From assembly GCA_018818835.1 (NCBI GenBank), contig JAHIRD010000141.1, forward strand, positions 4,608 to 68,607: DNA of 64,000 bases, given 5' to 3'. Shown here in pieces: positions 4,007 to 29,039 of the stretch (its first letter is position 1; each line of letters opens with the position of its first letter). This stretch comes from Pseudomonadota bacterium. GTDB taxonomy: Bacteria > Desulfobacterota > Desulfobacteria > Desulfobacterales > Desulfolunaceae. The notes under the pieces are model-generated. The model ran no database searches, was not told the DNA's origin, and saw only the letters and a program-made list of their open reading frames with translations. The translations under genes were made by a program, and so were the position numbers.

Positions 4007-4010
4007 ATAG

Positions 4011-7965: not shown

Positions 7966-7993
7966 AAAAAATCTCCTGTTCCTGAACCTGCCA

Positions 7994-9100
7994 TTACAAT
8001 TCGTAGGCAAAAGGGACTCTAACCTGAAGGGAAAAATCAGAGTCATTATTGGTCAAACCGATTCCCAGCCGGACATTCACAGAACGTTTCGGTGTAATGT
8101 TCCAGCCTGTTCCTATGCTGAAAACCGAGGAAATAGATCCTTCGGAACGTGTTTCCCGTGGCCCTTCCGGTCTGACCCAGTCATAGGATGTTTTGGACTG
8201 GTATGAATACTGATAGCTCAAGGTCAGGGATGCTTTATAGGACAGGGAATAGCCGATACCCATGGAAAAGGAATAAACTTCTCCAGGCTTGACACCGGCG
8301 AGGAATATTCCGGCTTCACCTTGAGTCCCGGTTTTGGAATTCAAATGGGTGGTTTCAATCCCATGCTCCACATTTATACCACCAAAAGCAACCAGGGGGT
8401 CGATGGATTTGCTGACATTGCAGCCCATGCCGATGGAATAGGTTCCGTTGCCCGTCGACATTTCTTTGGTGCTGTCAATTTTATAGGGGCTTCTTCCTGT
8501 TGGGCATGTTAATGACCCCGAGACAATTATTGATGGCAGGTCCTTACCGCTTTTCACGGGTTGGAATTGGAGACCGAACGACGTATCTCCAAAATCTGAA
8601 ACATTCTTTGCTGACGTATTGGTCTGGCTGTTGTATTTGTAAACAAAGGGGATATTGCTGTTTACTGTCAGGTTTTCTTTGACAGGATACTCGATGAGAA
8701 ATGAATTGGTCACCGTGTGGTATGCGTTGTGTTTCACGGCCACAATACTATCTGCATTGGCGGTGACGTTATCATAAGAATCACCGGCATAGCGAATGCT
8801 GTATTCAAAACCCAGTTTCCCAGGCTTCATGAGGGTATAATCACGGCCTGCGGCTGAAAGAATCGCGTCATCTTCAGAACTTTTTTCTTCCTGGGTGGTT
8901 TCAAGACGCCGCCTAATATCATTTTCTTCTTCCATTTTCGTGAGCTTGTCTTCAAGTCGTTTGATCTGCTCCTTGAATTGCTCCATATCGCTTGAAGGCT
9001 GCGCCTGCACGTTCACCACAGGGGGGGCTTCGGCATAAACCGCAGAGGTGAGAGTTATCATGGCTAAAATGATCAGTAGTTTTGTAAAATGTTTTATCAC
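7994..9100 (-). CDS. Outer-membrane beta-barrel with an N-terminal coiled coil (FapF-like architecture)
   Basis: GTG at 9100 follows GGAGG at 8-nt spacing and gives the signal peptide IKHFTKLLIILAMITLTSAVYA. Alternative starts are 9127 and 9139. A heptad-rich segment MEQFKEQIKRLEDKLTKMEEENDIRRRLETTQEEK is followed by about 270 aa of amphipathic strands ending ...QVRVPFAYEL. Confidence 0.6.
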   Translation of the reverse strand: MIKHFTKLLIILAMITLTSAVYAEAPPVVNVQAQPSSDMEQFKEQIKRLEDKLTKMEEENDIRRRLETTQEEKSSEDDAILSAAGRDYTLMKPGKLGFEYSIRYAGDSYDNVTANADSIVAVKHNAYHTVTNSFLIEYPVKENLTVNSNIPFVYKYNSQTNTSAKNVSDFGDTSFGLQFQPVKSGKDLPSIIVSGSLTCPTGRSPYKIDSTKEMSTGNGTYSIGMGCNVSKSIDPLVAFGGINVEHGIETTHLNSKTGTQGEAGIFLAGVKPGEVYSFSMGIGYSLSYKASLTLSYQYSYQSKTSYDWVRPEGPRETRSEGSISSVFSIGTGWNITPKRSVNVRLGIGLTNNDSDFSLQVRVPFAYEL

Positions 9101-9147: not shown

Positions 9148-9912
9148 CTATTGTTTATACCGGTTAGTCTTTGTGTCTGTCGTAGTTCCATTATTATGAA
9201 AATCAGCTTCCCATTCCTGGGGAAGGTCAAATGGTCTGTCTACATCGAACATCAGAGTTTTTTCCATATCCTTATCTATAAACCGGAGATCCTGTTCTTT
9301 GAGGCTTAGGCAGGACAGGGCGTTCCCGTATTTCGGGTAGATTCTGAAAAGGATATTGTTATACCACATGCCCATAAACTGGTCCACCGGGTAACTCCCG
9401 TTTCCCCGCCAGGGATCGGCTACGAACACATGGCCTTTGTGAATGGCTTTCAAGACCACAAAATGACGGTAGCCGAACAGCTCTATGGGAACAATGCATG
9501 GCCAGAGTTCAGGATTTTTCAGGTCGGAAAGCTCCGCGTTGTAGCCACCGGCCTTGTACCCCAGAACATCCACGAACTTCTGCATGTCCCAGAGGGAAAA
9601 AGCTCTGAGTTTTTTAATTTGTTCTTTGTCCCCATACTCTAGAAGACCCTTGATAATTTGTTTTTCAGTAAAATTTTCTCCCAGGTAGTTGTTGAGGATG
9701 GTCCCTAAAGCCGCTGATCCGCAGCTGTAATCGTAATTTTGCTTCATCAGGCAGGCCTGGGAACTTTCGGAGAGAGGGATGACTTCAGGGTAGATGCGCA
9801 AGGCTTCATTAGTCCCCATGGCAATATTCAATTCACCTTTGGGGGATGAATGGAAGGGATGAAATCCTGAGATCAGTCCAGCAAAAATGATAAATGCAAA
9901 AACCACATGCAT
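9148..9912 (-). CDS. Secreted C39-family (bacteriocin-processing type) cysteine peptidase domain protein
   Basis: ATG at 9912 with an N-terminal hydrophobic signal. Q-x5-C motif in KQNYDYSCGSAALGTIL, His in YRHFVVLKAI, and Asp in HVFVADPW. This is the complete C39 Gln/Cys/His/Asp arrangement. Confidence 0.8.
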   Translation of the reverse strand: MHVVFAFIIFAGLISGFHPFHSSPKGELNIAMGTNEALRIYPEVIPLSESSQACLMKQNYDYSCGSAALGTILNNYLGENFTEKQIIKGLLEYGDKEQIKKLRAFSLWDMQKFVDVLGYKAGGYNAELSDLKNPELWPCIVPIELFGYRHFVVLKAIHKGHVFVADPWRGNGSYPVDQFMGMWYNNILFRIYPKYGNALSCLSLKEQDLRFIDKDMEKTLMFDVDRPFDLPQEWEADFHNNGTTTDTKTNRYKQ

Positions 9913-10041: not shown

Positions 10042-10746
10042 TCATGGAGAATCCCACCACGTTCCAATTGAACCCGATTTAATCTCAGTCTCATCATACC
10101 CTGCAACGACCTTGAGGCCGGGCGTTGATCCACTCTGGCCCAGGTCTAATATAAAAAAAAGACCCATGTTACTGGTTGGGCTTCCATCGGAATTGAAATT
10201 AAATGTGGTCTGCCCCAGGTTGGCTTTATCATATACGGTCGGGCTTCCACCACTTAAGGCGATGGCAGGATTGTATGTGCCGGAGTAGCTGAGCATGTTG
10301 GCGCTGATCGTCCCCTGGAGCCGATTGGATCCTATGACGATGCGTTCGAGAACAGGATTTGTGGCAGAGGTGTCATCAAAGTCGGCAATAAAGACCAAAC
10401 CGTCAATGGTCAGGGGGGTATCCGTAGATGTATCCCCCAAAATCACATTGTTCCATTGAATATCATAGTTTGCTGCTGCTCCGCTCCTTAAGCTGTCGAT
10501 GGTCGCGTAGGTTTCCATATGAATATCCAGAAAAAGTCGGGCCGTACTGTTGCTCATGGTGAAATTGGTTAAACCGGCCTGGCCGGTCGATGATTTGAGC
10601 GCGTTTTCGTCCATGGCTTTGAGCTCGGCATGGAGCGACGATGGTAAGAATATAAAACAGAAAATAACAAGCACCATTAACTGGTAAACCAGTTTATCTC
10701 TGAACAAAAGTCCATCGAATCGGTGTATGAAAATTACTCTGTTCAT
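10042..10746 (-). CDS. Secreted protein (234 aa) with an N-terminal TGQAG box; paralog family member b
   Basis: ATG at 10746. Signal LMVLVIFCFIFLPSSLHA, then ELKAMDENALKSSTGQAGLTNF. Ser/Thr/Gly/Asn-rich and beta-rich, with no Cys after the signal peptide. Confidence 0.7.
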   Translation of the reverse strand: MNRVIFIHRFDGLLFRDKLVYQLMVLVIFCFIFLPSSLHAELKAMDENALKSSTGQAGLTNFTMSNSTARLFLDIHMETYATIDSLRSGAAANYDIQWNNVILGDTSTDTPLTIDGLVFIADFDDTSATNPVLERIVIGSNRLQGTISANMLSYSGTYNPAIALSGGSPTVYDKANLGQTTFNFNSDGSPTSNMGLFFILDLGQSGSTPGLKVVAGYDETEIKSGSIGTWWDSP

Positions 10747-10792: not shown

Positions 10793-11599
10793 TTAAGGAT
10801 TTCCTAACCCACGGCCGGGGATCTCTATGTAAAGTTTTTGAACATTCATGCCGTCAATTGCAAATAGACCCAAGTCTGTCGTGCCTGAGTCAGGAGCATT
10901 GACCTGTATATTATCGATATGGAAGGAACCCGACATGGGCATGTTCAAGCTGATATGTGCATTAGATTCAGCTGAAATATCGATGGTTGCAGGCTTGTTA
11001 TTCGTAAGATCACCCACTTGAATATCAAAGGTGATACCGGAAAAGTTCAACGCGTCTGTCGTGTTGTACTTATAAGAGAGAGTGTCTATTGTGATTTTGT
11101 GGCCTAGTTCGTAGTCGATACCCATACTGCCGACATGGGGCCCAATGAACAGGTGAAAAGATGACAGGACCATGGATTCAGCGGTTAGAGAACCGATATT
11201 TGTTCCGGAAAAATCGATGGCGTCAATGGTCATATCCGTGGATATTGAAATATCAGGACTTTGGCTAAAAAACATGATTTGATCATTGTAAGTGCCCACA
11301 TCAATGCTCAAATGGTTGATTTTGCCGTCATCGTCCATGTCAGATGAACCTGTGTTTGTGTGGGTAAGAATATGGATGTCGTTGAAGCTTATATATTCAG
11401 TTTCATCATCGGGATTGTAAAAGGTCATGTTGTCACTGTGGACTTCTGTGATCATGTCACCAATGGCGATATCAATACCGGCCTGGGCCATGGTTTTTTT
11501 CATCTGTTGGTTGGACAGTGCTTCAAGGCAGCATCCGGTGTCCGGGATGATGCTTATGATGCTCAACACGATGAATAAGTATGTTAAGGCCTGGGTCAC
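10793..11599 (-). CDS. Secreted protein (268 aa) with an N-terminal MAQAG box; paralog family member c
   Basis: GTG at 11599 after AAGGA. Hydrophobic N-terminus LTYLFIVLSIISII, then LEALSNQQMKKTMAQAGIDIAIGD. Asp/Ser/Thr/Ile-rich. Confidence 0.65.
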   Translation of the reverse strand: MTQALTYLFIVLSIISIIPDTGCCLEALSNQQMKKTMAQAGIDIAIGDMITEVHSDNMTFYNPDDETEYISFNDIHILTHTNTGSSDMDDDGKINHLSIDVGTYNDQIMFFSQSPDISISTDMTIDAIDFSGTNIGSLTAESMVLSSFHLFIGPHVGSMGIDYELGHKITIDTLSYKYNTTDALNFSGITFDIQVGDLTNNKPATIDISAESNAHISLNMPMSGSFHIDNIQVNAPDSGTTDLGLFAIDGMNVQKLYIEIPGRGLGNP

Positions 11600-11641
11600 A
11601 GAGTTGTCCTTTAAAACATAATGTTTTGTATGTCACTCCAA

Positions 11642-11708
11642 GGCAACCCGACCATCCGGTGGGCACCGGACTCGAAGCTTTCCGTCCCCGGATTGCTCCG
11701 GGTTTGGC
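11642..11708 (-). promoter_or_regulatory. GEMM-I-like riboswitch aptamer in the leader of the 10793..11599 operon
   Basis: Minus sense: GCCAAACCCGGAGCAAUCCGGGGACGGAAAGCUUCGAGUCCGGUGCCCACCGGAUGGUCGGGUUGCC. Stem 1 is CCCGGA/UCCGGG with a GCAA loop (compensatory changes relative to the other copies). It ends 42 nt upstream of the start codon. Confidence 0.8.
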
Positions 11709-11732
11709 GTTTCTTGAAACATTTGATCCTAT

Positions 11733-11776
11733 GAAAAAGCCCCTTCCGGGAAACATCTATGTTCAGGGAAGGGGCT
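11733..11776 (-). terminator. Rho-independent terminator after the 276-aa gene
   Basis: Minus sense: AGCCCCTTCC-loop-GGAAGGGGCT (10-bp stem) followed by TTTTTCAT. It starts about 35 nt downstream of the stop at 11812. Confidence 0.65.
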
Positions 11777-11811
11777 CCACGTAAATCACTTATGAGGATT
11801 GTGCTAATTCA

Positions 11812-12642
11812 TTAGTGAGCAGCGATTTCAACAATTCCACCAAGGATAGCCATTGCGCTCTGGCCTTTGGAAATTTTGATGAAGTTTGCATTATTGTTGA
11901 TACCGGTTCCTGCAACACCAACTGAATATTCATCAGCTGTGGTGGAGATAAGAAGGGTCGGAAGACCAATCACAACACCAGTGACAGCCTGAGTGGTACC
12001 AATCGCAGTTGCTGTAGGATCAGCTGCAAGAGTAGCAACACCGGAACCTAAAAGAACGCCGGCTTCAGAGATGTCACGAACATCAGTATCTGCAGAAATA
12101 GTAGCAAGTGCAGTTGCTTTTGCAGTACCGAGAGCAATAAGGTTGGCCATAGAAGGATCGCCAGCATAGGTAGCAGCTGCTGTGGCAACAAGACCTGATT
12201 GAGTCAATACGGTAGTCAGGAGTGCACCGGCATCAGCATTAATGATGGCATTATTGGCATTAACTCCAGCTGCAAGGATTGAACAAGCTCCTACGTCAAT
12301 GTTAAGAGCAGCAGCTTCAACCCAAGTACCCTTGTTGACAACACCAGCTGCAGCAAGGAAGTCAGCTTCGTAATCAGTCTGTGAAGTCATGGCTAGGTAT
12401 TCTTTCACAACGTGTTTGTCACTGATAACGATTGAGCCTTCAACACCGTTTGTTCCGTCTTCATCCGTATAAGTGGTTGAACCTGTGAATTGTTCGATCA
12501 CAACGTTATCCAAAGTGATGCTCACACCAGCCTGACCAGTGGCGGATTTCATGTTGGCGTCAGTCATTGAAGTCAAAGCAAAGACTGAAGGAGCGATTGC
12601 GAGAGATGCACCAAGAACTAAACTCATAGCTAATTTTTTCAT
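11812..12642 (-). CDS. Secreted Ala/Gly/Thr/Val-rich protein (276 aa) with an N-terminal TGQAG box; paralog family member d
   Basis: ATG at 12642 with a GGAGAAGAAA RBS (the track start 12654 is a TTG). Signal MKKLAMSLVLGASLAIAPSVFA, then LTSMTDANMKSATGQAGVSITLDN. The rest is low-complexity A/G/T/V sequence. It has its own terminator and its own riboswitch-like leader. Confidence 0.75.
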   Translation of the reverse strand: MKKLAMSLVLGASLAIAPSVFALTSMTDANMKSATGQAGVSITLDNVVIEQFTGSTTYTDEDGTNGVEGSIVISDKHVVKEYLAMTSQTDYEADFLAAAGVVNKGTWVEAAALNIDVGACSILAAGVNANNAIINADAGALLTTVLTQSGLVATAAATYAGDPSMANLIALGTAKATALATISADTDVRDISEAGVLLGSGVATLAADPTATAIGTTQAVTGVVIGLPTLLISTTADEYSVGVAGTGINNNANFIKISKGQSAMAILGGIVEIAAH

Positions 12643-12686
12643 TTTCTTCTCCAAAGTAAAATTAAAAATTAATTTAATTTACCAGA

Positions 12687-12762
12687 GGCAACCCGACCAT
12701 CCCCATCGCAAGCATGATGCGGACTCGTTGGCTTTCCGTCCCTGGATTACTCCAGGTTTGGT
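12687..12762 (-). promoter_or_regulatory. GEMM-I-like riboswitch aptamer, variant with A at the selectivity position
   Basis: Minus sense: AUACCAAACCUGGAGUAAUCCAGGGACGGAAAGCCAACGAGUCC...GGAUGGUCGGGUUGCC. Stem 1 is CCUGGA/UCCAGG with a GUAA loop. The base two nt 5' of CAAACC is A here; it is G in the other six copies. Confidence 0.75.
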
Positions 12763-13765
12763 ATTTTCTTTGGCGGTTTTGCTTGCGCACCCTTGCGCAA
12801 GACAAATTGATTTGTAAAAACGATTTACCATTAAACAGATTCGTTTAACGTTCTTAAGAATTAGCCTCCTTTCCATATAAAAAGAAATGTCCCCACATTC
12901 CAGTTAATATTCATATCCCTAATGAGTCTTTTTAAAGATCTTAAGGGACACGCGACGACCTAACTAAAGCCGCCGGAAACAACATGTATGTAAATTTTAG
13001 AAAGAGCTGATTTATGCCTACCTCGTAAACCGGTTGGCTGTGCGGCCCATGTGTTCTCGTGTGTGGGCCTTGTCTTCGCATTCAATCATCGGATGAACCA
13101 TTCAAAAATTGAAAGACCGTAACAATGTTTTATAAAACGTACGAAGATAATCCTTATGTACGAAAGTAGTAGGGTCGAATGATGATTGTATATCCGCTGC
13201 CCTTTTGCTTTGTCAATTAAAAATTTTCGATTTTCTTAAAAATTAAATTGTACGAGTATAAAAAAAAGTACTTGAAACGATTGACAATAGTCATTGTGAA
13301 CGCTGTTCATCAGTTGTGCCAAATGTACTAAATAGGTCCATTCGGTTGTACAGCTGTTAAAATATCGAAATTTCAGGCATTTGAATTATAGCCCCGAAAA
13401 ATGATTTCGCGAAATCCTGCGAAAATATGGGCTTTTACCGAACAATGTTCATGTACTGGAATGGGATTTTGAGGAAAAAATATGATTTCTATTGAGTTTT
13501 TAAGGAACTTGCGCGTTTGGTAAGGTACCTTTTTGATAAATCGGGGGTCACCATGGGCGTTTGTCAGGTGAAAGTAATTCAATTATCCGATTTTAAAGGT
13601 ATTTTAACTGAATATATGTAAAAAAGTTCTTAGCTTTATTAAGTATTTTACCCAAGGAGAGAAACATAGTTTCAATAAATGGACATAGATCTTAATGACG
13701 ATCATGATACTCAGACCCTATGTTTTTAAGGGCTCGCAGGCGTTTAATTGAAGGATGGCATGGGA

Positions 13766-13781
13766 TGGCACGTATGTTGCT
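13766..13781 (+). promoter_or_regulatory. Sigma-54 (-24/-12) promoter, orphan
   Basis: TGGCACGTATGTTGCT is an exact match to the TGGCACG-N4-TTGCW consensus. There is no plus-strand ORF of 60 aa or more downstream before 19959. Confidence 0.5.
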
Positions 13782-14354
13782 ATTTTATCCATTATTATTC
13801 GAGGGGTCGGATAATACAAAAGATCATGTCATAGGATGTGGCAAAGAAAAGCACATTGGAAATTTTAAAGGCATCATAGGTCTCTTGGGTTTAAGCCGCT
13901 GAGACCGCATTATCGGGAAAGGTTATCCTTATTGGATTCCCGTTACACACATAAAGCCTGGTATACGCGTGTTGAACGGTAATCTGGGGAATGATTGTGA
14001 CATCCTGTAATGAATGGTTCTTCATTTGGCTTAAGCAAGGGGTACCCTTACATGCCCCAACGACGCTTATCTACGCGTCGTAGATCATACTTATTTTTCG
14101 CAAGTGTTTAACCAGAAGCCTTTCCGCGACGACTTCAAGGAATTTCTGCGATTTTTTTCAGCCTATTTGGCCATTTTATTCATCAGTGGCTCAGGGTTTT
14201 CTCTGTTTTAAATTTCCAAATTATACACTATAAAAAATTAGCCATGTGGTTTTCCCAAAGAGAGTCCTATATATAAGGTGCAAAATCTTATGATTTTCTC
14301 ACAGAGGTACAAAAATTCGGAGAACAACTCAGGGACAGGCCAATAATACACTCA

Positions 14355-14659
14355 CCACCCGGTCGCATAGCTCACTGAAAAACACAGCGTGGCAAAGCCA
14401 CACCCAAAAGCCTCGTCTCTCACGGTGGCACAAAGATTACGGAGAAGTGCCAAAAGCTGATTGCGATGTAAAAAGCCCCATATACAGCGTTATCGTGTTT
14501 AGCTGGGCTTAAATATACGACCAAGTATGCCTTCACGCCCGGCTAAACACTATGCCTTGCCTATGGACCTTGTTTCATAGCCATCCATCGACTTTTTATG
14601 AGTTCATCAAAGCTTGTGAATAATAGTTTTTTCTTTGTGATCTTTGTGCCTCTGTGGGA
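14355..14659. repeat. Composite MITE-like repeat: a family-A hairpin element with a family-B element nested in its loop
   Basis: Family A arms are tctcacggtggcacaaagattac (14417-14440) and gtgatctttgtgcctctgtggga (14637-14659), which are inverted. The interior 14465-14613 matches the family-B element at 58016-58175 (cgtgtttagctggg...cccggctaaacac hairpin, then ...ccatccatcg...gagttcatcaaagc). Confidence 0.7.
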
Positions 14660-14870: not shown

Positions 14871-15926
14871 TCAAATATGATCTTTGACCACATGAAAATG
14901 AAGGGTGGATTCTGTGACGGTGCTTTTCCCCATATACATAAATACGACGAGCCAAAGTCCCTGGACTGTCAGAATAACCAGGGGGTTCCACAAAAACAAA
15001 AGCCCTTGGGCAATGTCTGGAACCATGGGGCTGTTTTGCCTGAAGATCAGGGCGATGACAAGGGCGTAGGTTCCAGCGATTATGCCCATGATCTGGTAGG
15101 CGGAAAAAGTGCCTTCTCCCCGGTAATCGGCCCTGAAGAATTCCGAAAAACTTCGCCAGGTCTGGGTGACCCCAAGGGTCAGGACCAGGGCTGTGCCTGG
15201 GTGACCTGCAAAGAACAACCCCAATCCGATCAGGGCTGAAACGGCATAGATCACCGATGTCACTGCCTGAATGGGAAGAACTTTAACACCCTCAAGCCCT
15301 GACGCATAACATGCTTTGCGGGTAGCCCCCCGGTAAATAAAATGGTGCTTTGAAAAAAAACGTTGGAGCAGGGGATGGGTTTCGGAAAGGGCTTTCCCGT
15401 AACAGCATCCAAAACTGACACAGGACAGACGGCCCAAAGATTCACCCAGGCTGTATGAAATGGCAAAGGCGGCAAGCGTCTCTACAATGGGGAACCGAAA
15501 GCCAGGCACAGGTTCAAAATGATTGAATCCACAAATCACCCAGGGAGAGATGAGAATGCCCGTGAACACACTTCCGCCGATGGTGAAGGTGTGTTTCTTT
15601 TTTTCCACGATCCGGGCGATCCATCGGGCAGAGGGCAGGAGGACGGAAAGAAGCAGGGTGATCAGACAAAGGCTTGCCATGATGGGCGTTCCCATAGATG
15701 AACTGAGAATCAAAAACAAAATCACGGCCACGCATACCCCATTGGCAGACAACAGGCCGTACCAGGTGAAATTGACACCCTGGAAAAAACTGTCTTTGAT
15801 CCGTTGTTTGGGCATGGCCGCAAAAATCTGGCGGTTTTCAGCGGTAAGGCGGGTGAAGCCCCAGTACAAATAAAGGGCTGTGAACAGGCCTAAACATAAA
15901 ACAAATAAAATCTGGTAAATCATCAT
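14871..15926 (-). CDS. lgt: Prolipoprotein diacylglyceryl transferase (Lgt) family membrane protein; possibly a paralog
   Basis: Multi-TM protein. LGRLSCVSFGCCYGK aligns with the E. coli Lgt GRLGNFINGELWG block, VLPIQAVTS with LPRHPSQLYE, and WRSFSEFFRADYRG...FSAYQIMGI with FRIIVEFFRQPD...ISMGQILSI (E. coli sequence from memory). Confidence 0.7.
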   Translation of the reverse strand: MMIYQILFVLCLGLFTALYLYWGFTRLTAENRQIFAAMPKQRIKDSFFQGVNFTWYGLLSANGVCVAVILFLILSSSMGTPIMASLCLITLLLSVLLPSARWIARIVEKKKHTFTIGGSVFTGILISPWVICGFNHFEPVPGFRFPIVETLAAFAISYSLGESLGRLSCVSFGCCYGKALSETHPLLQRFFSKHHFIYRGATRKACYASGLEGVKVLPIQAVTSVIYAVSALIGLGLFFAGHPGTALVLTLGVTQTWRSFSEFFRADYRGEGTFSAYQIMGIIAGTYALVIALIFRQNSPMVPDIAQGLLFLWNPLVILTVQGLWLVVFMYMGKSTVTESTLHFHVVKDHI

Positions 15927-15941
15927 CTTCCTTTAATAGTT

Positions 15942-16964
15942 TTAGTTAGCGTCAGGTTTAATACCTTTTCCAATATCGCAACGGACGCATAGGTCCGTTT
16001 CAACCAATGGCTGGCCAAACCCCTTGGTGAATCTGCTTGTAACATCGTGCCGGGCTACGTTTTCCAGAAGATCCGGGCTGAATGTGAAACGGTTCTTCTG
16101 GAAAAGAAGAACCACCGTGGAGCTTCCCGGTCTGAAAAGGCTTTTGGGCTGGCCTTTTCTAAGGGTTTCTCCGATGCGGATCTCTCTGGGAGAATCATAA
16201 GCAACATCGCTGTATTGTTGGACAATATCCCCGATCATCAAAGCAACGATCTCGATCATGGCAACAAGGCCGGCGCCGGTACCTCCCGGGACATCCGTAT
16301 CGATGATGGTCACCACCCGTTTGTTTTTGGAATAGGGCGTCGCCACCTCAATGACGGCTGAGGGATTGCAGGAATGGTAGACTCCCCGGACGCCATAGAA
16401 ATCCATCACCGTCCCGGTGACGGGCATATGGTTGTAATGATATTTGTCCGGTGTCAAACGGAAAATCGCGTAATGCCCCTCTTCAAAGGCCGTGATCCAG
16501 TGTTGGTTTTCTCGTCCCAAAAGGTCTTGAACATCGAAGAATTTATCTTTGATGAAAAAGGTGGCCCCGTGATCCAGTGAGCCCGGTATCATCCTTGAAT
16601 CACAGGGGGAAACCACCTGATGGGGTGAGTGATGCATGGGGCGGGCCGTCCAGTATGTAATTTTTCTTTCAAAAAGTTGGCGGACCGAACGAATCGTTTC
16701 GGGCTCAAGGGCTTCATCCATATTCAGACCCAGGTCCCGGATGATGCGTTGGATTTTCTCCGGCCGGTGATTCAAGGGAAAATCGTAGTTGAAACAGGCC
16801 AGAAGATCCGAGGCCAATGATCCGGTCAAGGATTTGAATAGAAAGGACGCATTTTCACGGATACGGGAGTAGAGCATGCGGACCATCCGGTCTCCCAAAA
16901 GTTTTTCCGTTTTGATTTCACCGCTTCGTCGTTCAATGTATTGGTGGGGGTAACACAGGTCCAT
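15942..16964 (-). CDS. psd: Phosphatidylserine decarboxylase family (pyruvoyl-dependent) protein
   Basis: FRLTPDKYHYNHMPVTGTV matches the L-x-P-x-DYHR-x-H-x-P motif. LFRPGSSTVVLLF contains the G-S-(S/T) self-cleavage site. Confidence 0.75.
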   Translation of the reverse strand: MDLCYPHQYIERRSGEIKTEKLLGDRMVRMLYSRIRENASFLFKSLTGSLASDLLACFNYDFPLNHRPEKIQRIIRDLGLNMDEALEPETIRSVRQLFERKITYWTARPMHHSPHQVVSPCDSRMIPGSLDHGATFFIKDKFFDVQDLLGRENQHWITAFEEGHYAIFRLTPDKYHYNHMPVTGTVMDFYGVRGVYHSCNPSAVIEVATPYSKNKRVVTIIDTDVPGGTGAGLVAMIEIVALMIGDIVQQYSDVAYDSPREIRIGETLRKGQPKSLFRPGSSTVVLLFQKNRFTFSPDLLENVARHDVTSRFTKGFGQPLVETDLCVRCDIGKGIKPDAN

Positions 16965-16969
16965 GGGGC

Positions 16970-19483
16970 TTATCCTTTTGTCACTGTTTTTAATGACAGG
17001 TGGCTTTTTGATTTTTCCCGGAAAGGGGCGGAATGGGTCTGGGTTGAGTCGTCTTTGGCTTTTTTGTCAAAATAAATCTGAAGAATCAAAAGCCTGGCCA
17101 TGGCAAGGATGTCTTTTTCTGAGGCCCTGTCATTTAAAATGGGGTCTTTGATCCGGTTCAGAAAATCCACCGGGCTTTCCGAGCCAAGGATTGAACAGAC
17201 AACATCCTTGAAGACAGGCTCTCGGTAAGTGACCCAGAGTTCCATTTTCTCAATGTCCTGTTTCATTTGGCCCAGGGCCTCCTGGATGTGTTTTGTCCTC
17301 AACCCGTTTCTGTAATAGTCTTCGGCCATGCTGTTGAATTCTTCGGCCGGAATTTTCATGGGGTTTTTGATGGTTTTTTTCTTTTTACGGGAGATGTGAC
17401 CCATAATTCCCTGGCTGAGCTTTGATGAAACCGACGATTCAACATGATGTGTCAGGCGATTCTCAAGATCGGCCATGGTTTTTTCAAGGCCAAGTTCACG
17501 GATCAGCTCTTTTCCATCTTCTTTGAGCATGGACAGAAGACCCATGCGATATTCCTGATTTTTAACCCGGACATATCGGGGATACCGATTGCTTTTTCTG
17601 CTTTTTTTTGTGTGGCTGAGAATGTTCGAAAGAAAACGGTTTGTGCTGTCCATGGAGACGTAGAAGGTCGGTATGCCGATGGCCGTCCCAAAAAAGATCT
17701 GTCGCCTCTCACTTTCCGTGAATGGATCATCGGGGATATCCAGGTGATCGACCTGACCCGTGAGGATGTACTGATAGCACAAGGCCGTGATCAACATCTG
17801 AAGATTGATCGCATGGGTGAGGTCTTCTCCCGGATTGTCGAACATGCTGTAATAGCGACCTTCAAATCCGGAAAAACCCATGTCCGAGTGCTTGCGCATC
17901 CGATACAGAAGGTACATGGGCATTCTCATGTCAAAAATACCCATGTCGTCCAGGTCTTTTTTAAGGCGGGTATCATTTCCCGGGCGTCCGTCCAAAGCCG
18001 GACTTTCATCGGAACTCATCAGGCAGGCAAAATAGTCGATGAGCCTGAAGTCGGGGACCACATCACCTTTAAGGCCGAATATGCGGCTGGTCAGTCGGTC
18101 CACCCATTCGGGACCGAAGGGCGTGAGGGTCCGGCCCAGGATATTTAATGAGGCCTTTTTTTTCCATCGCCGCCATATCATCCGAAGATGTGTGAAATCA
18201 AGTTCATGGGGAAGAAAGCTCAGAACTTTTTCAGGATGAAAATCCTTGAAAGAAAGCCTGTAGGGGGCCGCACTGTAGGTGTTCACAAAAAGGGGGAGAA
18301 AATGTTCGGTGATTTTGATCACCAGATCACCCAGGTATTTTTCATGCTCTGCTGTGAACCCCGAGTTTTTATTTTCAAGGAGACGGGATAGTTTTTTGCT
18401 GCCCAGGCTCACATGGGTTCCGTTATTGGCAAGACTGATGTTGGACATGTTGGGCAAAACCACCAGATTCCGGGTGATAATGCCCGCATTTTTCAGTTTG
18501 GATACCGCATTCATCTGGCTTCGGGAAAGGACACGGTGGCAGAGTCCCATGTATTGTTTTTTTTCCTCGCCTTTATCCCAGCCCGAAAGGCAGGGGCTCA
18601 TGAATAATTCCCGGTAGAACGAATCCGGGATGATGTCATTGATCATTTTCTGACGTACGGGCGGGGTGGCAGCCGAATACGTGAAAACGGTTTGCCCGCT
18701 TTGGTTGAGGCCGAATTTTTTGTTGGCATACTGGGTGAGAATCTGTGTGAGGAGAAACCGTTTCACGGCCTCTCCTGATGCAGCTTCCCCGATGCTTGAT
18801 CCTTTGCTGTGCTGGGCCGTGTAAAAGGAAAAAATTTCAGGGGAGGAGTTATCGTTTAAAAAATGATGCATCAGGCTCTCTCCGGTCACTTTGATCACGC
18901 TGTGGGTGTCCGGCTCAGAGCCGATGATGTCGGCCAGTGACAGTTTCAGAAGATAGCTGACCGGGATGCGGAGCAGGCTCATGTCATCGTCTTTGATGAA
19001 AAAAGTGTGTGCATCACTGCGGCGGGGGGAGTCGGGTTTGGATTTATCGCTCAGAAGATCCTGGTTGAAAACAAGTTTTGCATAAGAGCTTAAACAGGAC
19101 ATATCCAGGCGAACCCAGCTGTTTTCCCAGATCTGGCTGTGATTATTTTCGATAAATTGCCGGAGTCTCTCTTGAAGTGATCTGTCATTGTCACCTGACT
19201 GGGCCCGTTTGATGACGTTTCTGTAATAGTTGGAGTTCCTGATCATCCGGGGCAGATCCACCCGGTCACCGGAACCCATGACAACAGTCTGGAATTCATT
19301 TTCAAGTCCTGCTGTTGTGTCGTTTGATGAAAAGGGCAGGGATTTAACAAGATTTTCCGGTGAACTGAAATCAATGCCCAACAAGTCGCAGAGTTGGGAT
19401 AAAAGGGAATTTGAGGTATCATGGGGTGTTTGAATTTTTATTTGAGTGTTAATTAGCACATGAATCCTTTTCTGAATAGACAC
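16970..19483 (-). CDS. Large (837 aa) cytoplasmic protein of unknown function; first gene of the psd/lgt-like operon
   Basis: Long uninterrupted ORF, 5 nt from the downstream psd-like start. No signal peptide or TM segment, and no motif I can assign. Confidence 0.6.
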   Translation of the reverse strand: MSIQKRIHVLINTQIKIQTPHDTSNSLLSQLCDLLGIDFSSPENLVKSLPFSSNDTTAGLENEFQTVVMGSGDRVDLPRMIRNSNYYRNVIKRAQSGDNDRSLQERLRQFIENNHSQIWENSWVRLDMSCLSSYAKLVFNQDLLSDKSKPDSPRRSDAHTFFIKDDDMSLLRIPVSYLLKLSLADIIGSEPDTHSVIKVTGESLMHHFLNDNSSPEIFSFYTAQHSKGSSIGEAASGEAVKRFLLTQILTQYANKKFGLNQSGQTVFTYSAATPPVRQKMINDIIPDSFYRELFMSPCLSGWDKGEEKKQYMGLCHRVLSRSQMNAVSKLKNAGIITRNLVVLPNMSNISLANNGTHVSLGSKKLSRLLENKNSGFTAEHEKYLGDLVIKITEHFLPLFVNTYSAAPYRLSFKDFHPEKVLSFLPHELDFTHLRMIWRRWKKKASLNILGRTLTPFGPEWVDRLTSRIFGLKGDVVPDFRLIDYFACLMSSDESPALDGRPGNDTRLKKDLDDMGIFDMRMPMYLLYRMRKHSDMGFSGFEGRYYSMFDNPGEDLTHAINLQMLITALCYQYILTGQVDHLDIPDDPFTESERRQIFFGTAIGIPTFYVSMDSTNRFLSNILSHTKKSRKSNRYPRYVRVKNQEYRMGLLSMLKEDGKELIRELGLEKTMADLENRLTHHVESSVSSKLSQGIMGHISRKKKKTIKNPMKIPAEEFNSMAEDYYRNGLRTKHIQEALGQMKQDIEKMELWVTYREPVFKDVVCSILGSESPVDFLNRIKDPILNDRASEKDILAMARLLILQIYFDKKAKDDSTQTHSAPFREKSKSHLSLKTVTKG

Positions 19484-19944: not shown

Positions 19945-19997
19945 CCTGACAACGCAAGATGGTAACAATTAAATTCAATTTAGTGGTGGAGTTGAAT

Positions 19998-22900
19998 ATG
20001 AAAAAGCATTTATTGATATGGATAACGGCATTTTGTATTGGCCTTATGTTGACTGCATGTGGAACAATGACGGAAAATACGGATGAAGAGGTTGATGAGT
20101 TCCAGAGTAATGGAACCCTGGATCCGGAAATCTACGCAAACTTCAAACTCCTTGAAGTATTTGACGGAAGGGGAGCCCTGGAGGAAATCTGGGACAGCAT
20201 TGATGCCAAGCAAACCAACCCCCGCCTGGAATGCACCGTGGACAAGTATCCCGATGATTTTGTGACCTTCTCCAATGTGGCTGCTGGGATTCTTCGTGCC
20301 GACAGCCAACCTGTTGCCGGCATGTTGTCATCGGAAACGGCGAGTATTATCGGGCGCATTCAGGATGAAAGCCCGGCTTTTATGGACAGCCCTCCGGATG
20401 TCGGAGCCTTTTACACCAAGGGCACGGATGTTTATGCAGATGACTTTTATAGTTTTCTGGACAAACTCTGGGAAGGGGATCAGAATCCGGGTGATCAGGC
20501 CATGGCGGCCATTGCCAGCAAGGTGGTGAGCCGGATTCTGGCTAAAAAGACCGCGGCGGATATTCTTGCCGACATGCAGGAACTGGTTGATGATATCCTG
20601 GATGCCGATTTTGACAGGGATTTCAATGATCTGGCCTCTCTTCTCGGCAAGCTGCTTATCCAGGCAGACTATCCGCTCTGGGTGGATGCTGAAGGACATC
20701 CTGTGAGCAGGGATGCCATTGATCCAACACTGGATACCAACCTGGGCGTGGGAAATGCCGTTGAAGGCATGAACACCTTTGTAAACTGGTTCAATAAATT
20801 AATGGCCAATGCCCAGTCACGGGAACTTCTCTACGGTGTGATCCGTGAGTCTGTGAAAATGTTCGATCCTGATCCCGACTCCCCGAACAGCGAAAAAGTA
20901 AAAGCACTGCTTCGGAATCTGGAAGACCATTTTACAAAAGGCGGATCGGTTTACGAGTCCAACCCCCTTTACAAGAGTGCGCCGGATGATCCCACTTACA
21001 CCGATACGGAACTCGGGCAAACTGTCCGTGAATTCATGCCTTACCTGGCCCAGCTTCTGGCCCGGTCGGACCGGCCCATTTCCCTGGTCAAACATGATGA
21101 GGGTGAGGAGCCTGTGTATCTCTTGAGGGAGATGGTCCATGCCTTGAAGAGCGTCGGCTATGATCCGGATGCCCTGAACATGGAAGATTCCCTGACGATG
21201 ATGATGCAATACGACCTTCTTGGGCGTGATAGGACTGACAAGGATTCCGGAGCTTTCCCGGCATCATTCCTTGAAAGTATGATGTTTCTAACCTGTGCCA
21301 CAACAAATTTCGGATTTGCTGACGGTGGGCACACAGGGGAAACCACCCAGGTTACGAATCCCACCACCCAGCACGGCCACGGAGCATATCTGGAGGCTTT
21401 AACGCTCAACGATTCACTGATCAGCATGACCACGAACAAGACCATGGGGCTTCTCGGGATTTACGATATTTCATTCATGGCAAATGACAAGGAGTACATG
21501 TCCCGGAGTCTGGTGCCGTTCACCACGGATAACCGGAGTGACTATCAATTTGATTTTAATCAGGACTACGCTATTTTAAAGGCCCTTCCCACGAATTGTT
21601 CCGGAGATCTGGGTACACCGGACGGGGGGAATCCCAACGGTGTGAGTCCTGGGAAAAATATGTACACGCCCTATAATCCCACAGGCATTGGCGAAACCCA
21701 GCTGGCGGCATGGACGGTGAACTGGGTGGTCCGAAGTTGCTTCGGGGGAGAAGGACCTTATTACTATGCCGACCCGAATGCGGAAACCGTTACGGTGAAC
21801 GGAAAAGAATATTCTAAATTTTTGCGTCCCGACGGCCGTGTTTATGCCCTTGTCAATATGGCCACCGATCCCTGGGAATATATTTATCCCACAGACGGAG
21901 ACAGGGATGCCGAAGATATGGAAACTGCGGCTCTTGCCGATTATAACGGCCAACGCCAGCGTTTGAACCGGTTTAAATCAACCTGGCATTCGGATTATTA
22001 CATGTACCGGAGGAATAATCTGATCCGGACGGTGGACAACAGCAGCGGAAATTTTACAACCGTGGCATTGAGAGACGGAGACGCGGCACAAAGGCTTACC
22101 TATCATGAACTGATTCCCGAAGATGACCGGACCCATGTGCGAGCCTGCGCAAGTCCTGAAGAAGCATTTTTCAGAAACTATCAGTGGGTTTACATGGAAA
22201 AGAAAATGGTCTTGATCATTCCCCAGAGTTTGAGCCTCATGGGGCTTGGCTATGGCCATGTGTTCATGGTCCTGGAAGCCAATGGCTGGTCTGGACTTGC
22301 AAATATGAGGATTTTAGAAGAAAACCATGTGTGGGCCAAACAAAAAACCGATGGAATCTCGGATATCCCGGGTGATTACCGGGTTGAGTTGAAAGCCGAC
22401 ATGACAGCCATTACATCCGTTGCCGTAAACACAGGCTCTGTTTACAATGGAACATTGGGCAGGGGACATTCCACGCCGGCCATTGTTGGAAAAAATCTTC
22501 CGGCACTCTATCGGCTGGCCTTTCCTATCAGTCCTGAGATGGACCGGGGCAATGGTGTGATCGATGTTGAACTGGGATCCCGGGAATTTGAGGTGGGGGA
22601 TGAGATATGGCAGCGACGAAATGCCGTTGCACCGGCCTTTGTCTCATTGCTCTACGCCATTGATAAACACCGGGTACTCTATCCGGATTTTGACCCGTCC
22701 TCCCTGCAAAGCGGCATTCATGGTAACTTGAACAACCTGGTTCCCCTGATAAAGCCTTTGATGTTTTATGCAAAAAACGGTGAGGGGAACATTCCGCCAT
22801 ATGATGTCTGGAAAGTTCGCGTTCAGTCCGCACCCAACAGTGAAGATTGGGCTGGAGAACCCTATCTGAGACCCAGCATAGGCTTTTCGGGCAACCAGAG

Positions 22901-23999
22901 GTGGGATGGAACCGATGATGAATGGACCTATTACCAGCCTGCTGTGATGAAAAACTTTATCAATGTCTTGATTGACAGTGATATCATGGCATCGGTGACC
23001 CAGGGAAAACGCATGGACGGGATTCTGCCTGTCATGGCGGAAAACAGGGCTGTGACCAATCTTTTTAAAATTTTGATGAGCGATATCAACGATACCAATG
23101 AGCTGTACAGTGCTTTGGAGCAGATCACCGGGGCCGTAAAATACACCGAAGGCCAGTTGACAGCAATCAACCGCCCGATGGATTCAGCCAAGAAACTTTC
23201 CTTCCCCGACTGGATGTTCGCCCAGGGAACGGGTGCCGACGAATTCGGTTTTTATACGGAGTTTACAGGTGTGCGCCCCGAGGATATCATTCTTGACATC
23301 GGTCTGGACCGGCTTGTGGGCCATAATTCTTTTGATGATGGTGTGGAACATGAGGGCTATGGCCTTGCCTACTATGTGGATGACCAGGAAGCATTAAGCT
23401 GGGCTGATTTTGACAAGGATGTGGATGCCATGGAGGATTTACTGCATCCTGACAGTGAATACAGCATCGTGGAGTCCTTCATCGATATGCAGGATGCCAT
23501 CTTTGCAAGGGATTATCAGTATTCACAGGATCAGGTGGCAGGTCTCTTGTATACCCTGGGAAAGGTCTTTACCCGTTTTGATCATGACCAGAGTCGGTGG
23601 GTGGTCCAAGGGGAAGCCGGTTTTAATGATCTATACTCCATTTTAAAGCAGAGGGTCCCGGTTATCCACGATATGGTCAAGGACGAGACCGGAGCCAATT
23701 ATTGGTCCTTTATGAAAGTGAACAAGGACATGCTTGCCCAGATAAACGCGTGCGAATCCTCCAATGGAATGATGCCCTACCTTCTGAGTGCCATGAGCAG
23801 CGACGATGGGGCAGAAAAGATCATGACCGATTTCCACACCTTTTTGATGGATGACATCGTGTCCAAACCCGCCCCATTGTGGACCACTCTGGCTGATCTT
23901 CTGGCAGACATGGCCCAGGCCGTGGATAACTCCAATGAAGGGGAGCTGGTTGAAAAGGTTTTCGAGTCCTATGGGTTCCAGCGCAACGGGGATTATTGA
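19998..23999 (+). CDS. Giant lipoprotein (1333 aa), unknown function; paralog 1
   Basis: ATG at 19998 lies 7 nt after GGAG. MKKHLLIWITAFCIGLMLTAC carries a lipobox (LTAC). Acidic, no recognisable domain. Collinear with ORF 24664..28740 along its whole length; both end ...YGFQRNGDY. Confidence 0.85.
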   Translation: MKKHLLIWITAFCIGLMLTACGTMTENTDEEVDEFQSNGTLDPEIYANFKLLEVFDGRGALEEIWDSIDAKQTNPRLECTVDKYPDDFVTFSNVAAGILRADSQPVAGMLSSETASIIGRIQDESPAFMDSPPDVGAFYTKGTDVYADDFYSFLDKLWEGDQNPGDQAMAAIASKVVSRILAKKTAADILADMQELVDDILDADFDRDFNDLASLLGKLLIQADYPLWVDAEGHPVSRDAIDPTLDTNLGVGNAVEGMNTFVNWFNKLMANAQSRELLYGVIRESVKMFDPDPDSPNSEKVKALLRNLEDHFTKGGSVYESNPLYKSAPDDPTYTDTELGQTVREFMPYLAQLLARSDRPISLVKHDEGEEPVYLLREMVHALKSVGYDPDALNMEDSLTMMMQYDLLGRDRTDKDSGAFPASFLESMMFLTCATTNFGFADGGHTGETTQVTNPTTQHGHGAYLEALTLNDSLISMTTNKTMGLLGIYDISFMANDKEYMSRSLVPFTTDNRSDYQFDFNQDYAILKALPTNCSGDLGTPDGGNPNGVSPGKNMYTPYNPTGIGETQLAAWTVNWVVRSCFGGEGPYYYADPNAETVTVNGKEYSKFLRPDGRVYALVNMATDPWEYIYPTDGDRDAEDMETAALADYNGQRQRLNRFKSTWHSDYYMYRRNNLIRTVDNSSGNFTTVALRDGDAAQRLTYHELIPEDDRTHVRACASPEEAFFRNYQWVYMEKKMVLIIPQSLSLMGLGYGHVFMVLEANGWSGLANMRILEENHVWAKQKTDGISDIPGDYRVELKADMTAITSVAVNTGSVYNGTLGRGHSTPAIVGKNLPALYRLAFPISPEMDRGNGVIDVELGSREFEVGDEIWQRRNAVAPAFVSLLYAIDKHRVLYPDFDPSSLQSGIHGNLNNLVPLIKPLMFYAKNGEGNIPPYDVWKVRVQSAPNSEDWAGEPYLRPSIGFSGNQRWDGTDDEWTYYQPAVMKNFINVLIDSDIMASVTQGKRMDGILPVMAENRAVTNLFKILMSDINDTNELYSALEQITGAVKYTEGQLTAINRPMDSAKKLSFPDWMFAQGTGADEFGFYTEFTGVRPEDIILDIGLDRLVGHNSFDDGVEHEGYGLAYYVDDQEALSWADFDKDVDAMEDLLHPDSEYSIVESFIDMQDAIFARDYQYSQDQVAGLLYTLGKVFTRFDHDQSRWVVQGEAGFNDLYSILKQRVPVIHDMVKDETGANYWSFMKVNKDMLAQINACESSNGMMPYLLSAMSSDDGAEKIMTDFHTFLMDDIVSKPAPLWTTLADLLADMAQAVDNSNEGELVEKVFESYGFQRNGDY

Positions 24000-24270: not shown

Positions 24271-24663
24271 TTCCTGTTGTCTGTGAAAGGGACGTACATG
24301 TTATCCACGGTCCCCATGGCCCCAAAATGCTGTCAGATATCCAAATTGTTTTTTTGATGGTAAACCCATGTCATGCCTTTCTTAGTTGTTGAAATCAATG
24401 AACAATGTACACCCAAGATAACGTTGTGAGTTTTGCACGTGTAAAATAAAGTGGGGGGCGTTGTTGAAAGATTCTTGACAGTCGCTTTAATGCCATTTAT
24501 TTCAATATAATAGTTAGATTGTATTGGGTGGGGGCCTTCTTGATTTTTTAGATGATCTCTGTTGTTTTTGCTTGCAAAGTACCTGCGTATGAAGTCTGGC
24601 GCCCCGGATGTCCCGAAATATTAAATGGTAACGTAAGATTCATTGACGAGCTGGAGTTTGAGA

Positions 24664-28804: not shown

Positions 28805-29039
28805 TTAAACACTGGAAGATAATAGGACATATAAGTCCCATGGGTCCCATAGGTCCCATAAGACTTTTATGTCCTTTTTTTTAGAAAACCTGTGTTTTCC
28901 AGGGCGGAGTCCCCGGCTTTTCTTTTCAGGTTTGTTTGATCAAGGGATTGATCAAACAAATCACGATGTGATACATTTAATTCACGTATTTTTTATTCTG
29001 TGTCATGGCAATTCCCAGTTTAATTCACGAGGCCACTGT

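Follow-up and report, generated by a model that had tools for sequence, protein, structure and literature searches.

A conserved three-gene operon from a Desulfolunaceae contig as the best available candidate for the BACys lipid pathway

The sequence analysed here is a 64,000-nt stretch of the Desulfolunaceae contig JAHIRD010000141.1, referred to as the window, and all coordinates below are window positions unless a related locus is named. The study concerns three adjacent minus-strand genes, called the trio, which encode a large ligase-like protein, a protein resembling phosphatidylserine decarboxylase (PSD) and a protein resembling the diacylglyceryl transferase Lgt. The trio was found to be the best available candidate for the pathway producing N-butyramide cysteine glycerols (BACys), the sulfur-containing aminolipids described from Desulfatibacillum alkenivorans under phosphorus limitation (Ding et al., PNAS 2024, PMC11181052). 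It is considered quite probable that the trio is devoted to making some lipid head group, whatever its identity. The narrower proposal, that the trio makes the BACys lipid class, is slightly favoured over its negation. The family or fold of each protein, the kept catalytic residues, the synteny, the phosphate-starvation neighbours in relatives and the reversed charge bias are observed here; the substrates, the product, the order of the steps and the regulation in this organism are inferred.

Organisation and conservation of the operon

The genes of the operon and its presumed promoter are arranged as follows.

16970-19483, minus strand: gene of the large ligase-like protein, 837 aa from a GTG start codon
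15942-16964, minus strand: gene of the PSD-like protein, 340 aa
14871-15926, minus strand: gene of the Lgt-like protein, 351 aa
19484-19958: intergenic region and presumed promoter of the trio, shared with a divergent giant-lipoprotein gene

The coordinates of the open reading frames (ORFs) confirmed the arrangement described in the original prediction, namely three minus-strand genes separated by gaps of 5 nt and then 15 nt. The motifs from which that prediction had recognised the PSD and Lgt families were likewise all present, and the Pfam families PS_Dcarbxylase and LGT agreed with both assignments. The start of the large protein is uncertain (803-837 aa, with the codon between 19381 and 19483), as P0001, a database entry of 100% identity, starts at about 19381.

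The conservation of the neighbourhood, which had been put forward as a check on the trio, was analysed in a survey of one genome per GTDB species. At least 592 loci encoded a relative, the trio being present in at least about 590 species, most of them anaerobic, and the best 80 of these loci were compared with the window proteins by tblastn. The order ligase-like, PSD-like and Lgt-like on the same strand was kept in 66 of the 69 loci having enough downstream sequence, contiguously in 61 and with inserted genes in 5. Among the remaining three, one carried the first two genes only, one carried the ligase-like gene alone and one lay on a contig that was too short. The carriers of the trio include members of Desulfobacterales, Syntrophales, Syntrophobacterales, Geobacteraceae (Citrifermentans bremense, Trichlorobacter thiogenes) and Acidobacteriota (Blastocatellales) and the anammox bacteria Ca. 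Brocadia and Ca. Wunengus, along with a metagenome-assembled genome of Bacteriovoracaceae and another labelled Heliomicrobium. In Ca. Wunengus a canonical Lgt of 282 aa is encoded about 2 kb upstream of the trio, and this coexistence indicates that the Lgt-like gene is a paralogue. The trio represents a dedicated and strongly conserved module, which acts most plausibly on lipids.

Fold and relatives of the large protein

The large protein gave no match to Pfam, to NCBIfam or to the sequences of the PDB. A Pfam scan of 42 members of its family at E<=10 was also without a match, and a PDB profile search with the protein returned nothing relevant. No hydrophobic segments were found in a scan of the sequence, which predicts a soluble protein. 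The original prediction had described an 837-aa soluble orphan; the solubility and the absence of matches to Pfam, NCBIfam and PDB sequences held, but the label of orphan was wrong, as more than 2,900 homologues were present among the scored candidates with identities of up to 68%. The best named homologue is from Desulfatiferula olefinivorans (67% identity). A search of a representative set of 1.84 billion proteins yielded 716 clusters at 50% identity, all forming one compact family, and found no bridge from this family to any named one.

The structure was modelled with AlphaFold2 (AF2) using 73 homologues and compared with the PDB by Foldseek, both of which had been suggested as checks together with the original prediction. 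The model was of high confidence, with a predicted local distance difference test (pLDDT) of 90 and a predicted TM-score (pTM) of 0.92. Ten of the top 13 Foldseek matches, including ranks 1-10, were GshA/GCL, GshF, PafA or Dop. These ten had probabilities of 0.44-1.00, the top seven lying at 0.94-1.00, and the target-normalised TM-score of the top 10 was 0.27-0.50. Among these matches, GshA came from Francisella and E. coli and GCL from yeast, and GshF was matched through its GCL domain; PafA is the Pup ligase and Dop the depupylase. No rival fold appeared, so this group is the best and the sole consistent fold match for the large protein. Glutamate-cysteine ligase (GCL), PafA and Dop belong to the superfamily of ATP-dependent carboxylate-amine ligases.

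The residues E27, E29, H323, E507 and R509, which are conserved in the family, sit on beta-strands of the AF2 model. When compared by eye with GshA, the segment AG-L-E27-N-E29 resembled GLERE, W-E86-N-S resembled LLEF, G-T-H323-I-S resembled GVHYNFS and F-E507-G-R509 resembled IEVR. The order of these motifs along the large protein is the same as that of the metal-/phosphate-binding motifs of GshA, the comparison having been made by eye and not by superposition. The Mg/ATP-binding residues of E. coli GshA are taken here to be E27, E29, E67, H150, E328 and R330. In spite of the common fold and a placing of acidic, His and Arg residues on strands that looks similar by eye, the large protein differs from GCL, PafA and Dop in having no detectable sequence relation to them (PF04262, PF04107, PF03136) and in belonging to no named family. 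It is also about 300 residues longer, with large insertions and a C-terminal helical domain at about 608-781. The model thus points to a conserved unnamed family with a GCL/PafA-like fold.

The PSD-like protein

The 340-aa protein contains the motifs DKYHYNHMP and PGSST and matched Pfam PS_Dcarbxylase at 2.3e-38, with 132 bits against a cut-off of 22. Its score was below the cut-offs of all PSD equivalogs of NCBIfam, the best of which gave 138.8 bits against a cut-off of 371. The protein aligned to the beta chain of E. coli PSD (5.7e-9) with H144 and H147 in register, and sPaD, KYHYNH and the self-cleavage site PGSS(T) were conserved in 60 orthologues. As the conserved Asp, KYHYNH and PGSS are retained, the PSD-like protein should be an active pyruvoyl decarboxylase, representing a divergent paralogue of PSD.

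E. coli Psd (PDB 7CNW/6L06; PF02666) and the PSD-like protein share the pyruvoyl architecture, the GS(S/T) cleavage site, the catalytic Asp and the His-x-x-His motif, and the N-terminal region of the latter is of the long bacterial PSD type. Apart from the equivalog scores, the two differ in the sequence DKYHYNH, which stands where Psd has RDYHRVH, and in the proposed substrate, which would be a gamma-glutamyl head group and not phosphoserine. For E. coli PSD the roles of the catalytic residues have been assigned, and the phosphate is contacted by Y137 and S166 (PMC7952604). The position of Y137 is occupied by Arg in the PSD-like protein, as in 15% of PSDs, and that of S166 by Ser. The gene pssA was not among the annotated neighbour families recurring in at least 3 related loci, about half of such families having been annotated by Pfam/NCBIfam.

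The Lgt-like protein and its predicted orientation

The 351-aa protein contains the motifs GRLSCVSFGCCYG and SEFFRADYRG. The match to Pfam LGT was at 2.5e-8 (34 bits against a cut-off of 24.9), and the NCBIfam Lgt equivalog gave 22.4 bits against a cut-off of 334. A phmmer comparison of the protein with PDB Lgt gave no match. The AF2 model of the protein had a pLDDT of 89.8, and when it was searched against the PDB by Foldseek, E. coli Lgt (5azb) was the sole meaningful match, with a probability of 1.00 and a target-normalised TM-score of 0.58. In the model about nine transmembrane (TM) helices are predicted, corresponding to the Lgt core with one extra helix at each end, and both termini together form a beta-sheet. 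The fold and the Pfam match above threshold are therefore shared with E. coli Lgt (PDB 5AZB; PF01790), whereas the extra helices and the sheet formed by the two termini are not.

The conservation of individual residues was analysed in an alignment of 59 Lgt-like orthologues with E. coli Lgt and the canonical Lgt of Ca. Wunengus. The catalytic and phosphatidylglycerol (PG)-binding residues of E. coli Lgt are Y26, H103, R143, N146, E151, G154, Y235, R239 and E243. Six positions (Y26, R143, G154, R239, E243 and R246 in E. coli numbering) were invariant in the 59 orthologues, whereas H103 was replaced by V/L/A/T, D129 by A/S and Y235 by T. The positions N146 and E151 are occupied by Cys in the Lgt-like family and equally in the canonical Wunengus Lgt, and for this reason the cysteines of GRLSCVSFGCCYG are not diagnostic. 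Structural and mutagenesis studies of Lgt assign these conserved arginines to the binding of the PG phosphate. If they are taken in this role, the use of PG as donor by the Lgt-like protein is plausible. The chemistry is also probably common to both proteins, that is, the attack of a thiol on the glycerol C3 of PG with the release of glycerol-1-phosphate.

Lgt is characterised by a periplasmic active site, an outer N-terminus, an inner C-terminus and cytoplasmic loops rich in Lys and Arg (K+R). The number of K+R in the homologous loops was compared as follows.

K+R in loops homologous to the three cytoplasmic Lgt loops: E. coli Lgt 4/4/3; Wunengus Lgt 4/3/4; Lgt-like protein of the window 0/1/0
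K+R in loops homologous to the periplasmic Lgt loops: E. coli Lgt 1/3/1; Wunengus Lgt 1/3/1; Lgt-like protein of the window 4/7/2

In the Lgt-like protein the bias runs opposite to that of both Lgt proteins, and the same was seen in 52 orthologues, which had 0.9 K+R opposite the active site against 17.2 on the active-site side. By the positive-inside rule, this reversal would place the catalytic face in the cytoplasm, and the topology of the Lgt-like protein is probably inverted with respect to Lgt. The active site would then lie on the side of cytosolic Glu, Cys and the ATP-dependent enzymes. Such a position disfavours exported lipoproteins and favours a cytosolic small-molecule thiol as the acceptor. 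The probable acceptor is thus a further difference from Lgt, as is the fact that the Lgt-like protein is always encoded with the ligase-like and PSD-like genes.

Public records label the 351-aa protein and its homologues (e.g. P0270) as 'prolipoprotein diacylglyceryl transferase'. The reversed topology bias and the conserved operon make it probable that these records are systematically misannotated. A further 'Lgt-like' enzyme, the one postulated for MYXO-CTERM proteins, was also considered and is unrelated to the trio.

Correspondence with BACys lipids and proposed pathway

Ding et al studied the lipid response of the sulfate reducer D. alkenivorans PF2803T to phosphorus limitation, in which phosphatidylethanolamine (PE), PG and cardiolipin were almost fully replaced by glucuronosyl glycerolipids and by new sulfur-containing aminolipids tentatively named BACys (PMC11181052). 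The head-group ion of BACys was reported at m/z 205.064 (C7H13O3N2S+). The cores were diacyl, acyl/ether and diether as in PG and PE, the BACys lipids rose as PG and PE vanished, and they were seen solely under phosphate limitation (PMC11181052). That paper proposes no genes for the class, and no gene assignment was found in the searchable literature on BACys, Lgt paralogues and sulfur aminolipids.

The trio is carried by D. alkenivorans DSM 16219 (locus L043), so that the reported producer has these genes. DSM 16219 is the type strain and identical to PF2803T. The mass computed for N-(4-aminobutanoyl)cysteine (C7H14N2O3S) minus the thiol H, as a cation, was 205.0641, and the published head-group formula fits the product predicted from the trio. 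Each part of the head group finds a counterpart among the three proteins: the GCL-like ligase would account for the amide, the PSD-like protein for the C4 amine lacking the alpha-carboxylate of Glu, and the Lgt-like protein for the bond between Cys and glycerol. The transfer of a whole diradylglyceryl unit from PG would also account for the match between BACys cores and phospholipid cores. The decarboxylation of S-diacylglyceryl-cysteine itself was considered and rejected, as the BACys head group keeps three oxygens. With three oxygens the carboxyl group stays on Cys, and the lost CO2 is therefore assigned to the C5 partner.

In the proposed pathway, the large protein would activate the gamma-carboxylate of Glu with ATP and join it to the amino group of Cys, the latter being either free or lipid-linked. 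The PSD-like protein would bind the gamma-glutamyl group through its free alpha-amine as a Schiff base and remove the alpha-carboxylate, leaving the 4-aminobutanoyl amide that makes up the 'butyramide' part. At the cytoplasmic face, the Lgt-like protein would transfer the sn-1,2-diradylglyceryl group of PG to the thiol of Cys, giving a thioether and releasing glycerol-1-phosphate, whose phosphate could be recovered. The PSD architecture suggests decarboxylation of a lipid-bound head group, and the steps may follow another order than that given here. The predicted product differs in one respect from the published lipid, whose tentative name implies a 'butyramide' of the carbamoyl type, whereas the enzymology suggests the isomeric 4-aminobutanoyl amide. 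The complete proposal, in which the trio is the entire BACys pathway and is built on an upside-down Lgt that S-diacylglycerylates a small-molecule cysteine in the cytoplasm with PG as donor, is held to be evenly balanced between right and wrong.

Phosphate-starvation genes and a regulatory box near the trio

The ORFs of the related loci were clustered, and the recurrent neighbour families were annotated by Pfam/NCBIfam. A classical Pho gene (pstS, pstC/A, phoU, phoH, alkaline phosphatase, Zn-phospholipase C or phnL) was located within 8 kb in 27 of 79 loci. The count was 43 of 79 when PHP-GT4, a GT4 glycosyltransferase fused to a PHP phosphoesterase domain, was added. For random loci a few per cent would be expected, which is a rough estimate and not a computed value. 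The recurrent neighbours of the trio were as follows.

PstS: 8 loci, 409 bits against a cut-off of 205
PstC/PstA: 6 loci
PhoU: 198 bits against a cut-off of 130
PhnL-type ATPase: 278 bits against a cut-off of 256
PhoH: 6 loci
Alkaline phosphatase: 7 loci
Zinc phospholipase C: 7 loci
Low-molecular-weight phosphatase: 7 loci
Histidine kinases and response regulators: 25 loci
DUF2062 membrane protein, after the Lgt-like gene: 16 loci
PHP-GT4 fusion of about 810 aa: 23 of about 80 loci, a radical SAM protein of 450 aa often being encoded as well

Examples of the PHP-GT4 and radical SAM genes are found in L033 (13669-16122), L027 (70-2505 and 3996-5348), L071, L075 and L076. Within the operon, L033 and L057 of Trichlorobacter carry the PHP-GT4 gene between the PSD-like and Lgt-like genes, and in L023 of Citrifermentans bremense the ligase-like gene is separated from the PSD-like one by phoU and two histidine kinase genes. 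The PHP-GT4 fusion is a candidate source of the co-induced glucuronosyl glycerolipids. When the window was searched by tblastn with canonical Lgt, GshA, the PHP-GT4 fusion, the radical SAM protein, the DUF2062 protein and the DksA-like protein mentioned below, only the trio was matched.

Two further neighbours were observed in particular groups of loci. A 735-aa protein without a Pfam match lies inside the operon in four Geobacteraceae loci, and in four loci of the Desulfotignum type the trio is followed by a DksA-like gene that has a PhoB-like box of its own. Coordinates of the 735-aa, DUF2062 and DksA-like neighbours are, for example, 11313-13520 and 17131-17646 in L033 and 12425-12952 in L036.

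The promoters were then considered. The E. coli Pho-box consensus showed no clear enrichment upstream of the trio, the mean best score being 9.4 against 9.1. The pstS promoters of the related loci had half-sites of the TGTAAC/TGTCAT type phased by 11 bp, and a replacement box was derived from the pstS and alkaline phosphatase promoters of these loci. This box, T[TCG]TAA[CT]-N5-T[TCG]TAA[CT], had 30 exact matches in 1.25 Mb over both strands, nearly all of them intergenic. It was present upstream of the ligase-like gene in 8 loci and, in a ninth (L015), about 160 bp upstream of that gene. It was present also upstream of alkaline phosphatase (three phased copies in L012), pstS, the low-molecular-weight phosphatase and the DksA-like gene. 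When a position weight matrix was constructed from the non-trio sites alone, 24% of the 76 trio promoters scored 14 bits or more, compared with 2.3% of shuffles, a difference of about 10-fold, and both anammox loci were among the positive trio promoters. The direct-repeat box is putative and resembles the site of an OmpR/PhoB-type regulator.

In the promoter region of the window itself, an E. coli-type Pho-box-like site, CTGTCAAGCTTCTTTCAC, was located at 19813-19796 on the minus strand; its agreement at 11/14 positions is within chance. Scans of the trio region of the window for sigma-70-like promoters and for terminators were at chance level. Pho regulation in the organism of the window would be an extrapolation from its relatives.

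The trio can be compared with the known remodelling of lipids under phosphorus starvation. Glycolipids are formed by PlcP and Agt, the betaine lipid diacylglyceryltrimethylhomoserine (DGTS) by BtaA/BtaB, and ornithine lipids by OlsB/OlsA or OlsF. In these systems, as with sulfoquinovosyl diacylglycerol (SQDG), phosphorus-free lipids replace phospholipids under Pho control, and the trio similarly occurs in relatives with pst, phoU, alkaline phosphatase, phospholipase C and a PhoB-like box. The PHP-GT4 fusion, beside or within the trio, has a parallel in the PlcP and Agt pair. The enzyme families of the trio, however, are entirely other, and the head group proposed for it would be thioether-linked and dipeptide-like. 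The proposed donor would be a phospholipid, used through an Lgt-type transfer, in place of free diacylglycerol or an acyl carrier.

Weighing of the BACys assignment and its alternatives

Several points weigh against the assignment of the trio to BACys. The link between the trio and the lipid is purely computational. The structure of BACys is itself tentative and comes from mass spectrometry only (PMC11181052). The present work predicts a thioether and a 4-aminobutanoyl group rather than its carbamoylpropyl isomer, and BACys is unreported from the Geobacter, anammox and Acidobacteria lineages that carry the trio. The large protein is assigned to the ligases at the level of the fold only, with the active site mapped by eye, and its Foldseek E-values were 7e-3 to 0.3. 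A profile comparison with E. coli GshA by hhalign, in which GshA was used alone and as a 14-sequence alignment, gave probabilities of 0.3% and 0.1%, which are not significant; the GshA profile was poor, every sequence from its homologue search being at least 82% identical. The PSD-like protein keeps the residues required in PSD and may act on phosphatidylserine (PS). The cytoplasmic orientation of the Lgt-like protein is a prediction by the positive-inside rule. With respect to regulation, no Pho genes were found in the window, the best PhoB-like box of its trio promoter had 5.9-7.7 bits (rank 38 in the window), and the trio promoter of D. alkenivorans gave a modest box match of 11 bits.

The same enzymes could build or remodel another head group, such as an N-glutamyl or N-aminoacyl PE or PS, or a diacylglyceryl-amino acid other than cysteine, in a stress or phosphate response. 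This would agree with the presence of the trio in many lineages from which BACys is unreported and with the catalytic and phosphate-aligned residues kept by the PSD-like protein, and the family assignments fix only the types of reaction (amide ligation, pyruvoyl decarboxylation and diacylglyceryl transfer). It is nevertheless rated as rather unlikely, as a product based on PE or PS saves no phosphorus while the neighbours in the relatives are phosphate-starvation genes, and as the sole phosphorus-limitation lipid without assigned genes in a species having the trio fits the three chemistries exactly. The GCL fold, which is that of the classical first enzyme of thiol cofactor pathways, also recalls a soluble low-molecular-weight thiol or dipeptide (gamma-Glu-Cys or 4-aminobutanoyl-cysteine) acting as a redox buffer, with the Lgt-like protein in a separate role, e.g. 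anchoring or exporting a fraction of it. Such a buffer is improbable, since the Lgt-like gene holds the same operon position in the 66 loci of 69 and its product retains several PG-binding and catalytic residues, and since the neighbouring genes serve phosphate scavenging and lipid degradation and not redox functions.

The two remaining explanations concern lipoproteins and housekeeping functions, and the first involves two giant genes that lie across the presumed promoter from the trio.

19959-23999, plus strand: giant predicted lipoprotein 1, 1346 aa, lipobox LTAC|G
24643-28740, plus strand: giant predicted lipoprotein 2, 1365 aa, lipobox LSAC|G

The giant proteins are paralogues with near-identical N-terminal regions, and no Pfam or NCBIfam domains were found in them. 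The divergent arrangement and the lipoboxes reported in the original prediction were both recovered, and its suggestion was that the giants are substrates of the Lgt-like protein; on this explanation the Lgt paralogue would lipidate special exported lipoproteins and the other two enzymes would modify the anchor. The good lipoboxes, the intergenic region common to giants and operon, and the Lgt fold with its key Arg, Tyr, Gly and Glu kept are in agreement with it. The proposed link did not survive the survey, however, since tblastn found homologues of the giants adjoining the trio in 0 of about 80 related loci. The charge bias moreover predicts a cytoplasmic active site, the wrong side for Sec-exported prolipoproteins, the partner enzymes are cytosolic or peripheral with one probably ATP-dependent, and Ca. 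Wunengus has a canonical Lgt in addition to the trio, all of which leaves this explanation very improbable. Similarly remote is an ordinary housekeeping pair of psd and lgt beside a conserved hypothetical gene. The public name of the 351-aa protein and the Pfam scores of both proteins above threshold would allow it. Both proteins nevertheless fall far below their equivalog cut-offs, the Lgt-like family as a whole has other residues in place of Lgt H103, D129 and Y235, and the topology bias is reversed. The canonical Lgt stands beside the trio in Ca. Wunengus, and the three-gene order is kept across phyla, unlike the ordinary contexts of psd and lgt. The equivalog scores of both proteins and, for the Lgt-like gene, the Wunengus Lgt support the earlier view that these are not ordinary housekeeping copies. 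As to the dedicated lipid or lipoprotein pathway envisaged at the same time, the conserved module and its plausible action on lipids bear out the former part, but exported lipoproteins are disfavoured by the charge bias.

Other features of the window

Additional features were noted outside the trio and are summarized below.

3414-4040, minus strand: gene of a DUF6160 paralogue
6082-8046, minus strand: gene of a FadL/TodX-type outer-membrane protein
9148-9912, minus strand: gene of a C39 peptidase
10042-10746, minus strand: gene of a DUF6160 paralogue
10793-11599, minus strand: gene of a DUF6160 paralogue
11812-12654, minus strand: DUF6160-family gene
12683-12771, minus strand: cyclic di-GMP (c-di-GMP)-I-type riboswitch aptamer
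about 12820-14590: region of nearly 2 kb without an ORF longer than about 70 aa on either strand
28869-30470, plus strand: 533-aa ORF with a diadenylate cyclase domain
34208-40437, minus strand: heavy-metal RND efflux operon of the CusA/CusB/outer-membrane-protein type
40890-47782: signalling genes, comprising a GGDEF protein, a hybrid histidine kinase and a 1110-aa HEAT/cNMP-binding/PilZ protein
50840-51997: SAT-domain gene
52011-52069 and 52865: strongest PhoB-like box matches of the window
52100-52480: 126-aa ORF

The riboswitch aptamer belongs to the GGC variant Rfam RF03167 (E 1.1e-10, 53.3 bits against a gathering score of 59) and is placed directly upstream of the DUF6160-family gene at 11812-12654. 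Together with the signalling genes at 40890-47782, it makes the window rich in c-di-GMP components. The region at about 12820-14590 lies just downstream of the Lgt-like gene and contains PhoB-like box matches at 13592 (14.5 bits), 14286 and 13931. No Rfam families were found in it, and it could represent decayed genes or an unannotated RNA.

The 533-aa ORF at 28869-30470 comprises the N-terminal TM domain of CdaA, a diadenylate cyclase (DAC) domain and a YbbR domain, and it appears to be a cyclic di-AMP cyclase fused to a domain of its usual partner CdaR. No cdaA homologues adjoined the trio among about 80 related loci searched by tblastn. The boxes at 52011-52069, which include three phased half-sites at 52011-52038 of 15-17 bits, are situated between the SAT-domain gene and the 126-aa ORF, with no recognisable phosphate gene nearby.

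Significance

The trio provides a concrete three-gene hypothesis for the BACys class reported in 2024. If the assignment is true, the Lgt fold would be newly used for the lipidation of a metabolite at the cytoplasmic face and not of an exported protein, PSD-type pyruvoyl enzymes would gain a new class of substrate, and the large protein would found a new family in the GCL/PafA superfamily. A phospholipid would be turned directly into a phosphorus-free lipid, with glycerol phosphate set free. The trio would also serve as a gene marker for the substitution of sulfur for phosphorus in lipids in metagenomes of sediments, aquifers, wastewater anammox reactors and soils, and this swap of 'sulfur and nitrogen for phosphorus' in the membrane would be common in anoxic sediments and soils and would so far have been overlooked.

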